Of a stretch of DNA of 64,000 nt, positions 5,449 through 11,229 are shown in pieces. Every line of letters begins with the position of its first letter. Within the stretch, counting starts at the first letter, position 1. The position numbers were made by a program, and so were the translations under genes. The notes beneath the pieces are model-generated. The model was not told the DNA's origin. It did no database searches and saw only the letters and a list, made by a program, of their open reading frames with translations. This DNA is from Promethearchaeota archaeon (GTDB lineage Archaea > Asgardarchaeota > Lokiarchaeia > Sigyniarchaeales > SOKP01): the NCBI GenBank assembly GCA_048940925.1, contig JBHLOC010000001.1:201158-265157 (forward strand). Reading direction: 5' to 3'.

Positions 5449-6549
5449 TTATTCTTCACTCATAGATATTATCAATCTTTCATAATCCAAATTCAAGAGC
5501 TTTAATTCTTTCTTTGTTAATTTTTTAATTTTCTTGTTAATATGAATCAATTCTTTTCTAAGATCGATTAAAGTATTTTGAATATTATTTAAGATATTTT
5601 CTTCATTGTATGTAACTTTTTCAATAAATTCAAGATACCTGAACTTTTTATTCTTGCCTGAATAAAATTTTTTTAATTCAACTATATTATCTTCAATCTT
5701 TTTCATTTGATATCTTAACTTTAGTAATAATAATAACTTCGATTTCCATTCTTTAAATAAAGTACTTTCATTATCAACCTTGTCGAACTTAAATTTATCC
5801 GAAAGTGGAATCTTCTCATCTTTCAAGTATTTTATTATTTCTTTATTCTCATCAATAGCTTTATGTATTTTTTTTAGAACAGGTTTAGTGTTTAAAGTAG
5901 AGTCGAAAATCTCAACAAATTCGTTAATTTTTTCTTTAATTTCAATAAATCTTTGATAAAATCCATCAATAGTTACTTCTATTTTAATTAATTGATATAT
6001 GTTCCCGAATTGATCTAAAATATAGTATAAATCGTCTGATAAAGCATAATCATGTTCACCAATTTCATAAATTAAACGGTGGATAACACTCGTTTTCTCA
6101 CATCTTACACCCTTTAATCTTGTTAATGCTAAATTGAAATTTCTTCGCGTTAATGACTTAAATTTTTTGTTTATTAGTAAGTAAAGAGTATCATCTGGAA
6201 TAGATATTATATCTTGTTCTATGGTTATTGTTTCTTCTCCTAGTTTTATTATAAAATCATCATCTTTTTGTTCAAACTCTCTTTTACTGCGAATATTTTT
6301 AATTAGTCCTAAGTCAATGTATATTTCAATGAATTCTTCTTCCCAGGAATTAATAAGATTACTTTTATAAATTTCGTCTAACAATAATATTTTACTATAA
6401 GATTCATTGATATTTACTTCGCTCAAATCTTTAAACAAATCATTTCTAATGATATATAGAAATAATATAATATACCTCATATCAATATCGTCTAAAATGG
6501 TGTTAATTAAATTTACATCATCTTCTAATGTTAAGTCATTATGTTCCAT
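5449..6549 (-). CDS. Hypothetical protein, putative winged-helix + coiled coil
   Basis: 366-aa ORF; LTRRNFNLALTRL..LIYEIGEHDYALS helix-hairpin pattern, then heptads. Confidence 0.7.
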   Translation of the reverse strand: MEHNDLTLEDDVNLINTILDDIDMRYIILFLYIIRNDLFKDLSEVNINESYSKILLLDEIYKSNLINSWEEEFIEIYIDLGLIKNIRSKREFEQKDDDFIIKLGEETITIEQDIISIPDDTLYLLINKKFKSLTRRNFNLALTRLKGVRCEKTSVIHRLIYEIGEHDYALSDDLYYILDQFGNIYQLIKIEVTIDGFYQRFIEIKEKINEFVEIFDSTLNTKPVLKKIHKAIDENKEIIKYLKDEKIPLSDKFKFDKVDNESTLFKEWKSKLLLLLKLRYQMKKIEDNIVELKKFYSGKNKKFRYLEFIEKVTYNEENILNNIQNTLIDLRKELIHINKKIKKLTKKELKLLNLDYERLIISMSEE

Positions 6550-6761
6550 GCCTAAAATCCACTCAATTATAATTAAACTTTCAAACTATTTCAGCCAAAA
6601 AGAGTGATTTAGCTAATTAAGCATCCCTAAAAAATTTTTCTAAAACCACTTAAAATAATTCTAAATAAAAGCAAAAAATTTTTAGCAAGTGTTTCTAATT
6701 AATTAATTAGAAATTAATAACTTATTATTGTAATTAATATCATTTTTTGGAGAAAATTAAT

Positions 6762-7340
6762 ATGGGACGTCGAAAAAGAAAACAAGTCAGCCCCAAAAGA
6801 GTAAAAAGAGTACCTAAAATTTTCACATGTCCTGAATGCGGTGAAAAGAGTGTAAAAGTGATTGATATAAAAAAAAAAGGTGCTTTTGCAACTGTGAAAT
6901 GTGGAAATTGTGGATTAACAAAAGAAGTATTAGTTAATTCGATTTCAGAACCTGTTGATGCGTTTGGGGATTTTATTGATATATATTATGCAGATCAGGA
7001 GCTCCAAAGGTTAGAACGACGTATTCAAAAATTAAAAGAAGAAAATGAATGGGGCGAACTAGCATTATCATATTCTATCCTATCAGATCTTTGTAAAACT
7101 AAAGCTGCATTATTATTAGAAGAAGAAGATGTTAATTTGGATGATGTTAACAAATGGAAAATCAAGGCAGAAGAATATAAACAACTTGAAAAAAACACAA
7201 TAATAAAACTTGATGCCGATGAATTAGAAAGAGGTGTCCGGACTGATGAAGAATCTTTGTTTACTGAAAGCGAAACTAAAATAAAAAAAGAAAGAAAGTT
7301 AGATGACATCTTTGATGATCCTGGATTTCTAGAATTTTAA
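6762..7340 (+). CDS. elf1: Transcription elongation factor Elf1 with C-terminal extension
   Basis: MGRRKRK start (ATG 6762), FTCPECG..CGNCGL..EPVDAFGDFID. Confidence 0.88.
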   Translation: MGRRKRKQVSPKRVKRVPKIFTCPECGEKSVKVIDIKKKGAFATVKCGNCGLTKEVLVNSISEPVDAFGDFIDIYYADQELQRLERRIQKLKEENEWGELALSYSILSDLCKTKAALLLEEEDVNLDDVNKWKIKAEEYKQLEKNTIIKLDADELERGVRTDEESLFTESETKIKKERKLDDIFDDPGFLEF

Positions 7341-7516
7341 AGATCGAGTATCTATTTTTTCTAACAAGAATTAACTATAATTGACATATAATTATATTAT
7401 ACTTAACTAGAAAATGAATTAGCATATAAGGAATTCCTAATTTATTTTGGAAAACAAAATATAATACTATTTTTTTAATTAATAGAAAAAAGAGTAATTG
7501 AGATTGGCTATGTTAT

Positions 7517-7972
7517 TTAACCCGATTGACTCTTTCTTTTAGCGAACAACTCTTTAAGCTCACCCATAATTGCACCTCTTAGAGATACTGGGCTTGCGGG
7601 ACGGTTTGGTGCTGGAGCCGACCCTGGACCTCCAGGTGGTGGCGGTGGGCCTCCAGGAGGGCCTCCTGGTGGACTGCTCAGCGGTGGACCCCCCGGTGGG
7701 GCACCTAATGCAGGTGATGATACAGTAGATGTTGCGGAGGTTACTGGACCACCTGCTTTAAGTGATGTAAGATCATTATTTATAGTTGTTAATTGATTTT
7801 GCAGATTAGTTACCCTTGTATTGACAGTTTGAAGACTTTGATCGACTAAATCAGAGATTTTTAGCACAATTTGCATTATTTTTTCAACAATATCTCCAAA
7901 ATCATTGAGTTTTTCCTCTAGCGGAGCTTTTCGAGTAGTCTCTAAGAAGGAAGCAAATTCTTCTGCACACAT
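7517..7972 (-). CDS. Coiled-coil + polyproline + C-terminal basic amphipathic helix protein (candidate actin regulator)
   Basis: Heptad region, PPGG repeats/PPPPP, terminal SLRGAIMGELKELFAKRK. Confidence 0.8.
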   Translation of the reverse strand: MCAEEFASFLETTRKAPLEEKLNDFGDIVEKIMQIVLKISDLVDQSLQTVNTRVTNLQNQLTTINNDLTSLKAGGPVTSATSTVSSPALGAPPGGPPLSSPPGGPPGGPPPPPGGPGSAPAPNRPASPVSLRGAIMGELKELFAKRKSQSG

Positions 7973-8102
7973 ATTAATTCTTTTATATATTTTATTTTTA
8001 ATGCTTTTCTAATAATTTAATAGTTTTTTATTTAATAAATTTAAGTTTAAACATAATGATTTTATTTAAATAATAACAGAAAAAAAGTAAGTATAATTCT
8101 AA

Positions 8103-8738
8103 CTAACTTAACTCATCAATAGAATCTTTTAATTTAAGCCATAAGGTATTTATTTCATCTCTTACTTCAATAAATTGTGTTATTTTTTTTATTAAGATAT
8201 CACGGGCACGATCAAAATCTCGTTGAACATCATTTAACTCTTGGTCAAGAATGTTTAACTTATCTCCATCAATTAATTTATTTTTTGCTTTTTCAACATT
8301 TAAAGCTTTTTTTATTATTATTGATCTTTTACTCGCCAAATCAGATAGAGCATTGATAAATTCCTCTTTTTTTTCTACCAAATATTCTTTTTGAACAGCT
8401 ATATCCTTAATTGAATTCAAATATTTATTATTAGCTTTAATAAATTCATCATTTTTATGAATGATATCTTGATATAATTTAACTTCTTCATCTTTAATAT
8501 TAGATCTATGTTCACGAGCTAAAGTTTGCATTTGTTTTAAAACATCTCTGAAGGTTCTATTTAGCATTTCTCTTGCATTATTTGTTTTAGTGATATGTTC
8601 CGCATATCTTTTTTGAGTACCAATTAAATTGATCTGTTCTTTAGCCAATTTTTTAAATTGAGACACTAATTCTTTTTCCATTTTAGCTAGTTCTAATTCA
8701 TCTTCATGAGTAATAATAGGACTCATTATAAACCCCAT
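8103..8738 (-). CDS. All-helical coiled-coil protein, BAR-domain-like
   Basis: 211 aa, three long helical heptad segments; BAR assignment is inference. Confidence 0.6.
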   Translation of the reverse strand: MGFIMSPIITHEDELELAKMEKELVSQFKKLAKEQINLIGTQKRYAEHITKTNNAREMLNRTFRDVLKQMQTLAREHRSNIKDEEVKLYQDIIHKNDEFIKANNKYLNSIKDIAVQKEYLVEKKEEFINALSDLASKRSIIIKKALNVEKAKNKLIDGDKLNILDQELNDVQRDFDRARDILIKKITQFIEVRDEINTLWLKLKDSIDELS

Positions 8739-8818
8739 ATTTATTAATTTTAAAGTTTTACTACTCTTACTAATATGAATGCTTATTTTGATTTAAATAA
8801 ATTTATTAATATTTAAGT

Positions 8819-11073: not shown

Positions 11074-11229
11074 TTAGTCTTTTGCCCCTAAAGCTTCTTT
11101 AACTTTCTCTAATTCTTCCATGCGTTTCTTCTTCTCTTCCTCTCTCTTTCTTAGCTCTTCTTCATCAACTTTCTGAAGTGAAACACCTTTTTTAATTTCA
11201 TCTTGAAGTTCTTTATCTATTGGAGTCAT
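11074..11229 (-). CDS. 51-aa microprotein with WH2-like motif and charged helix
   Basis: Manual translation MTPIDKELQDEIKKGVSLQKVDEEELRKREEEKKKRMEELEKVKEALGAKD; fills the rimI-pelA gap; GGTG upstream. Confidence 0.75.
   Translation of the reverse strand: MTPIDKELQDEIKKGVSLQKVDEEELRKREEEKKKRMEELEKVKEALGAKD

Follow-up and report, generated by a model that had tools for sequence, protein, structure and literature searches.

What is the small protein encoded at positions 7517 to 7972 of the window (the whole 64,000-nucleotide stretch of DNA analyzed here), and does it act on the actin cytoskeleton of its host? The initial annotation had pointed out a coiled coil, a PPGG/PPPPP tract and a terminal GAIMGELKELFAKRK, and all three were found within the 151-aa open reading frame (ORF). 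Asgard actin regulators named in the literature up to September 2026 comprise profilins and gelsolins only, and polyproline-dependent nucleation or elongation machinery, or a filament polymerase, was stated as not found in Asgard archaea both in 2022 and in 2026 (PMC9433394; PMC13716822). Besides two profilins, the host genome encodes two Lokiactins and three other members of the actin family, a gene set that identifies it as Asgard; Lokiactin is ∼99% identical across the host's taxonomic family.

7517..7972, minus strand: whole gene, 151 aa plus stop codon (ORF and translation, homologs, Asgard genome matches)

Homologs, database representatives and genome matches demonstrated that the gene is a real member of a conserved, unannotated, Asgard-wide protein family. 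A word-index search returned 195 homologs at E ≤ 0.01, with 50 to 73% full-length identity; the best 120 of the 195 were 138 to 191 aa long, and any that carried a name were called "hypothetical." Public homologs were labeled Promethearchaeota or Lokiarchaeota. HMMER, run exhaustively over 1.84 billion representatives, yielded 75 at E ≤ 0.001, and a profile of distant family members matched 344/400 Asgard genomes (81/90 among high-quality genomes). The family also occurred in closed genomes of the same order, and its plan was identical down to 25% identity (alignments A1, A2, and A4). Pfam gave nothing above cutoff for the 151-aa protein, apart from subthreshold coiled-coil noise (e.g., Baculo_PEP_C), and the ESM Atlas returned solely the family's own uncharacterized clusters. 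Longer forms, sought with alignment A2, were not returned, which is weak evidence. Orthologs from three closed genomes gave no record when looked up by exact sequence. Full-text searches of the literature on Asgard actin regulators, to September 2026, and on the VASP FAB peptide yielded no account of the family. It is thus an undescribed family whose layout resembles that of eukaryotic actin-assembly factors, and which is a candidate, unproven actin regulator.

According to Pfam, the flanking genes encode Elf1, a protein with a Pelota-like eRF1 domain, and an enzyme of the radical SAM type. No RNA run was listed for window 7400-8800. The Elf1 zinc-ribbon protein (window 6747-7340, plus strand; Pfam E = 4.5e-19) carries a ∼115-aa extension rich in charged residues; its gene adjoins the family gene, convergently at the host locus, and upstream on the same strand in taxonomic family f3. 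A 366-aa ORF (window 5449-6549, minus strand) had no Pfam match at E ≤ 1, and an N terminus similar to that of this ORF was found near the family gene in locus L065. Lineage f6 carries a tandem duplication of the family gene (∼124 aa plus ∼146 aa; L067:3713-4523 and L068:4022-4833), and the pair faces a V4R and Roadblock/LC7 gene.

The three-part architecture of coil, polyproline and tail proved to be real and conserved across the family. The parts of the protein are as follows.

7847..7972, minus strand: N-terminal conserved helical domain, residues 1-42 (AEEF..F..TRKAPLEEKLNAFGDIVEKIM..VL.IPDL)
7757..7846, minus strand: heptad coiled coil, residues 43-72, presumed oligomerization element (periodicity, AlphaFold2, PDB matches)
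7604..7756, minus strand: disordered Ala/Ser/Pro/Gly linker, residues 73-123 (pLDDT below 60, GC island)
7607-7699, minus strand: PPGG/PPPPP tract within the linker, residues 92-122 (sequence)
7532..7603, minus strand: conserved C-terminal motif, residues 124-147 (RPxSP cap plus helix SLRGAIMGELKxLFxKRK)

Alignment A1 contained 29 invariant columns, mostly within the N-terminal domain and the tail. The N-terminal domain was retained in distant members (EF..FL..x6..P.EEKV..L..I.EK.M.IV.K.PD), and AlphaFold2, run on the family alignment, predicted helices at residues 2-15 and 18-72 (pLDDT 83 to 97 for the N-terminal domain and above 90 for helix 18-72). The coil lies in the second of these helices. 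Its core positions (43/47/50/54/57/61/64/68/71) were occupied by V/I/L/M/F in at least 86% of cases, compared to at most 16% at the intervening positions, and the periodicity of the family alignment peaked at 3.5. In the monomer model, the coil formed one long exposed helix, and the top PDB sequence matches of the family profile were coiled coils, mostly trimeric. A trimer, hinted at by the best PDB matches to trimeric adhesin coils, was considered and set aside, the Asn residues of the coil not lying at core positions.

The predicted disorder spanned residues 73-127. Across the family, the linker had a median length of 57 aa and contained 33% Pro, and runs of at least three prolines were present in 44/57 members (26/27 close and 18/30 distant). 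The Pro/Gly tract forms a GC island (55 to 57% GC versus ∼25% in the genome). Base composition does not account for the tract, since at least five consecutive prolines occurred in just 4 of 5,636 ORFs (ORFs of at least 60 aa, 4.8-Mb host genome). Some distant members and the GTPase-fused paralog described below had a weak or nearly absent tract, while coil and tail persisted. Coil and tail form the core module, and the tract may serve only as a spacer.

The 151-aa protein ends in RPASPVSLRGAIMGELKELFAKRKSQSG, and the tail was modeled as a helix at residues 128-150 (pLDDT ∼88). It was the best-conserved segment across the family and was kept even at 25 to 35% identity. The initial annotation had named a tail not conserved in homologs as grounds for abandoning its reading; among 57 diverse members, E138 was found in 57/57, L139 in 55/57, R132 and K140 in 53/57 each, and F143 in 51/57. 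Some orthologs (P0125 and the L064 ortholog) carry an acidic run after the tail, with no Trp. The L064 ortholog (L064:4000-4458, plus strand), encoded in the closed 6.04-Mb genome G138, contains the repeat PPPP(P)GR three times and terminates in SLRGSIMDELKTLFSKRR followed by TDDDDDD.

How far does the likeness to eukaryotic proteins extend? WASP and WAVE proteins consist of an N-terminal regulatory or coiled region, polyproline, WH2, C, and A segments, and the family shares with them the order of N-terminal helical/coiled region, polyproline, and C-terminal helix. This broad order, together with a by-eye ungapped alignment of the two coiled coils, had suggested that the 151-aa protein might be genuinely homologous to BRK1/HSPC300, to CCDC53 or to the WAVE homology domain, as a remnant or ancestor of the WAVE/WASH complexes. 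The alignment did not survive a profile search. With profile A1 against all PDB chains, BRK1 (3p8c_E) reached E = 0.95 and 12.8 bits at rank ∼52, below ∼50 unrelated coiled coils, including GCN4 fusions, adhesins, spike proteins and the lipoprotein Lpp, and thus stayed at generic coiled-coil background. No WAVE, CCDC53 or VASP chain was among the best 60 of the 113 PDB matches at E ≤ 10. A Foldseek comparison with the PDB, which had been proposed as a further check, placed nothing better than E ∼8 beside the AlphaFold2 model: two rows were returned, both P22 tail needle, and no WAVE/WASH coiled-coil subunit. The Atlas likewise gave no supporting match. The protein also differs from WASP and WAVE in having no acidic/Trp region of the "CA" type that binds Arp2/3 (it ends in ...FAKRKSQSG), and neither a WH2 domain (Pfam, PDB profile) nor the LKK[TV] signature. 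Partner subunits (WAVE, Abi, Sra1, and Nap1) are not reported for Asgard archaea in the papers on Asgard actin that were consulted. Homology to BRK1, CCDC53 or WAVE, which we regard as extremely improbable, is effectively refuted at the level of sequence and fold.

The tail is not a member of the WH2 family. WH2 (Pfam PF02205) gave no match to residues 100-151 even at E ≤ 10, and the tail-only profile A5, compared with PDB chains at the same cutoff, hit neither a WH2-bearing chain nor one of VASP. The canonical LKK[TV] is absent, and LFAKRK stands after the helix instead. A leucine-rich repeat (LRR) protein of the host genome with the internal tail-like segment SPISLRTNIMSELKKK was considered as an indication that the motif is portable; it was discarded, as no ortholog in 16 related genomes covers that region.

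A second comparison concerned Ena/VASP proteins, which are built from EVH1, a proline-rich region, and EVH2 with GAB, FAB and a tetramerization coil. The family shares with them a presumed oligomerizing coiled coil, a Gly/Pro-rich tract (residues 92-122 supplying the central proline-rich region) and a short basic helix. As first proposed, the VASP FAB peptide 259-278 (PMC10340426) aligned to the tail without gaps, matching it at I/L-M-x-E-L/M...L/F-A-K/R-R-K/R, and the hydrophobic moments were similar (0.30 for the family tail versus 0.34 for FAB). Scored on the tail PSSM, this peptide, which is one choice from many possible actin-binding motifs, reached 6.2 bits, and a window that good occurred in 22 of 5,636 host ORFs (∼1.33 million 17-mer windows). 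On the tail HMM, it reached 4.1 bits, with E = 11 as a database match. The likeness of the tail to VASP FAB thus appears to lie above background, without significance, and is no proof. There are clear differences as well. The family protein has no EVH1 domain (no Pfam family was above cutoff, and its N terminus consists of two helices) and no GAB/WH2 (KLRK) motif, it is much shorter (151 aa versus ∼380 aa), and its coil (residues 43-71) precedes the proline tract, whereas the coil of Ena/VASP is C-terminal. The resemblance to VASP and WASP is best described as one of layout, an analogy rather than a demonstrated homology.

The helix core of the tail is amphipathic (µH 0.58 to 0.64 over 11 residues and 0.30 to 0.40 over 18), with a net charge of +1 to +3, a basic KRK end and a short hydrophobic stripe of ∼five residues. 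Such a helix, placed on a flexible proline-rich stalk, might also serve as a membrane tether, in which case the coil would provide multivalency and the N-terminal domain would recruit cargo. FtsA and MinD are bacterial examples of membrane-targeting helices on flexible linkers, and the family tail resembles them as an amphipathic, basic C-terminal helix that follows a long, disordered linker. A neighboring gene encoding a BAR-like protein (see below) is also in keeping with a membrane function. However, lipid-binding helices usually keep a pattern rather than residue identity, whereas E138 was invariant, and R132, L139, and K140 were each kept in at least 93% of the 57 diverse members. The family tail thus conserves identities, including an invariant Glu beside a hydrophobic face of ∼five residues, beyond the need of lipid binding, and unlike FtsA and MinD, the family has no link to division genes. 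We consider a membrane tether improbable, the near-invariance of the polar residues R132, E138, and K140 being the sole argument that disfavors it. Since these same three residues are kept over 57 diverse members, one conserved protein partner is indicated.

Domain fusions offered a view of the possible partners. A paralog in the host genome carries the module on a GTPase.

L053:1354-2595 (= G000:C32), minus strand: 413-aa paralog, Arf/Rag-like GTPase plus coil plus tail

In this protein, the Arf/Rag-like GTPase is followed by the second helix and coil of the family, a short linker without prolines, and the tail RLQVLNELKDLFSKRK; full-length orthologs were found in all six genomes sampled from the host's taxonomic family. 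P0145 and P0153 follow the GTPase-coil-tail plan too, with a proline-rich linker. Association with small GTPases is the most reproducible association of the family. In P0164, the N-terminal domain and coil are joined to a gelsolin domain (best PDB match Loki 2DGel 7whg_G, E = 1.3e-11), and the gene sits directly after two small-GTPase genes. We gave this gelsolin fusion less weight: it is known from one metagenomic contig of 5 kb, a search of 101 genomes did not recover the fused form, and the host's ortholog of that gelsolin is devoid of the N-terminal domain. In other metagenomes, P0141, P0143, and P0146 join the N-terminal domain and coil to a zinc ribbon and to a C-terminal motif of the PRKGNWGYG type that they have in common; P0143 has an N-terminal Ras-family GTPase as well.

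The gene neighborhood at the host locus includes a protein with a BAR-like predicted fold.

8103..8738, minus strand: upstream neighbor, 207-211 aa, BAR-like three-helix fold (structure model, Foldseek)

Pfam found nothing in this neighbor. Its model has three helices of 53 to 71 residues (pLDDT 86, pTM 0.66), and the top 36 Foldseek matches in the PDB were all members of the BAR superfamily (E 0.005 to 0.05), with TM scores of 0.60 to 0.63 for arfaptin and 0.53 to 0.55 for the I-BAR domain of IRSp53; MIM I-BAR, endophilin and amphiphysin were matched as well. The predicted structure thus has the elongated three-helix antiparallel bundle of ∼200 aa expected of a BAR domain. We treat the neighbor as genomic context for the family gene and at most as a putative partner. 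The two genes adjoin in 12/12 close loci and according to public locus tags. Among distant lineages, a search with a narrow profile recovered the adjacency only in family f4, and it was absent in most. Elsewhere, a gelsolin-domain gene lies ∼0.9 kb from the family gene (L066 lineage), and Ras-like GTPase and Roadblock/V4R genes are found near it in other lineages. The association with small GTPases and a BAR fold is reminiscent of that of WAVE with Rac and IRSp53.

A scan of the host genome for proline-rich ORFs revealed a second family of similar layout.

L085:2643-3281 (= G000:C34:11642-12280), minus strand: P0317, second coil-polyproline-helix family, 213 aa

P0317 comprises an N-terminal helix and (GGGPPKAPP)n repeats, ends in GGGLSSLRDEMLDELNRLKKIMR, and has the tail SLRDEMLDELNRLKK; its family occurred in 34/41 genomes of the class. 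When profiles of the two families were compared, the tails alone aligned (18 columns, P ∼9e-4, probability 23%). In four genera of the host's family, P0317 adjoins an actin paralog (C34:9481-10599) that is 42% identical to Lokiactin, either directly or via one 248-aa gene. The linkage to the actin paralog was confined to taxonomic family f1 and was absent in families f3 and f7, while adjacency to the BAR-like gene extended to f1 and f4.

Several further ORFs deserve mention in their own right. A 51-aa ORF in the window (11074-11229, minus strand), ∼3.3 kb from the family gene and on the same strand, contains ELQDEIKKGVSLQKV, which by eye fits the WH2 signature L..xI..G..L.KV. It is conserved at 51 to 58 aa in 28/30 genomes of the host family and in 2/3 of family f3. 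Its best PDB match was to the N-WASP WH2 repeats (3m3n_W, E = 0.19), and Pfam WH2 was not matched; judging from its sequence, it is a candidate, unproven thymosin/WH2-like microprotein. On another contig of the host genome (G000:C10), a 130-aa ORF that appears Roadblock/LC7-like by eye (L061:360-752, minus strand) lies directly downstream of a gene for a 275-aa gelsolin-domain protein (L061:955-1782, minus strand). Two more genes lie within 8 kb of this pair, one of the actin family (C10:22502-23599) and one for a proline-rich protein of 720 aa (C10:26629-28788).

These associations can also be explained by a scaffold linked to small GTPases and BAR proteins that makes no contact with actin. 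The N-terminal domain and coil would then pair with the GTPase-fused paralog or with other coils, and the tail would bind the BAR-like neighbor, a GTPase regulator (e.g., Roadblock), or the protein's own N-terminal domain as an autoinhibitory latch. The fusions to Arf/Rag/Ras-type GTPases, the position of P0164 directly after two small-GTPase genes, and the Ras-like GTPase and Roadblock/V4R genes nearby in other lineages all agree with such a scaffold, as does the best fold match of the BAR-like neighbor, arfaptin, a binder of Arf/Arl/Rac. Moreover, the confident tail helix in the monomer model could reflect intramolecular packing. Small GTPases are, however, very abundant in Asgard genomes, which makes chance association easier, and neither the gelsolin fusion and neighbor nor the linkage of P0317 to an actin paralog is explained. 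We think this scaffold unlikely, but take it as a serious rival, because small GTPases are the most reproducible association of the family.

Our preferred reading is that the 151-aa protein is an oligomeric, VASP-like actin adaptor, analogous rather than homologous to VASP, that regulates actin directly; we regard this as plausible and give it somewhat less than an even chance. In favor of it, we counted the conserved architecture, the conservation of polar residues in the tail, taken with the ∼99% identity of Lokiactin within the host family, and the spread of the family through Asgard genomes, as well as the GTPase fusions, the gelsolin fusion and neighbor, the BAR-like neighbor, the P0317-actin linkage, the PSSM score of the VASP FAB peptide and the scarcity of polyproline. 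Against it, we counted that neither sequence nor fold matched a known actin-binding module at a significant level (Pfam, PDB, HMM), that LKK[TV] is absent, that the proline tract fades in part of the family, that the gelsolin fusion stands on one contig, that the BAR-like and P0317 linkages stop short of more distant lineages, and that the amphipathic, basic tail could bind membrane instead. The link of the family to actin is circumstantial and comes from context. Lokiactin coimmunoprecipitation in L. ossiferum enriched a profilin, five gelsolins and an ARF GTPase, and two BAR proteins were detected, short of significance (PMC13716822). The classes of protein are the same as those discussed here. 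The family shares its organisms with Asgard gelsolins and profilins, and one fusion and one gene neighborhood join its modules to gelsolin domains; its own fold, helical and disordered, is unrelated to theirs.

What the analysis shows is the architecture, its conservation, its spread through Asgard archaea and the associations of its domains and genes; for such an adaptor, we infer oligomerization, binding of the tail to actin and an effect on filament assembly. The protein would be a small cytoplasmic adaptor in which the N-terminal helical domain and the heptad coil assemble an oligomer, every chain of which would bear a flexible proline-rich arm tipped by the conserved short helix. Through its clustered end helices, the adaptor would bind monomeric or filamentous actin and, much as Ena/VASP or WASP-family proteins do, regulate the cytoskeleton built from Lokiactin, working alongside small GTPases and the BAR-like membrane protein. 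For the proline tract, we envisage a spacer function and perhaps the docking of profilin-actin or of a different partner that binds proline. In eukaryotes, profilin classically binds polyproline, and the PPGGPPGGPPPPPGG peptides would accordingly be candidate ligands of the host profilins. Short polyproline motifs occur in Asgard proteins, according to one published remark. According to published work, Loki and Odin profilins failed to bind VASP polyproline, while binding by Heimdall and Thor profilins was weak (PMC8410842; PMC9433394). Profilin recruitment is the weakest part of the model, because the profilins of Loki and Odin are those that did not bind.

Asgard archaea crawl and form dynamic actin-filled protrusions. 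In its strongest form, which we put forward tentatively and as the less probable outcome, the adaptor reading holds that the family is the missing filament-assembly factor of Asgard actin. Proline-rich arms, clustered by the coil, would each present a Lokiactin-binding helix (SLRxxIMxELKxLF); through its occurrence on Arf-like GTPases, this helix would couple GTPase signaling and BAR membrane bending to polymerization, and the family would represent a pre-eukaryotic functional counterpart of VASP and WASP. The family is a concrete and cheap candidate for testing, because it is small, easily expressed and phylum-wide, and because it combines a coil and rare polyproline with an invariant end helix that is also present on Arf-like GTPases. 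If the protein binds Lokiactin, the principle of displaying actin-binding helices in clusters on proline-rich arms, in connection with GTPases and BAR proteins, would predate eukaryotes. If it does not, the family would still define a new conserved adaptor module of Asgard GTPase signaling.
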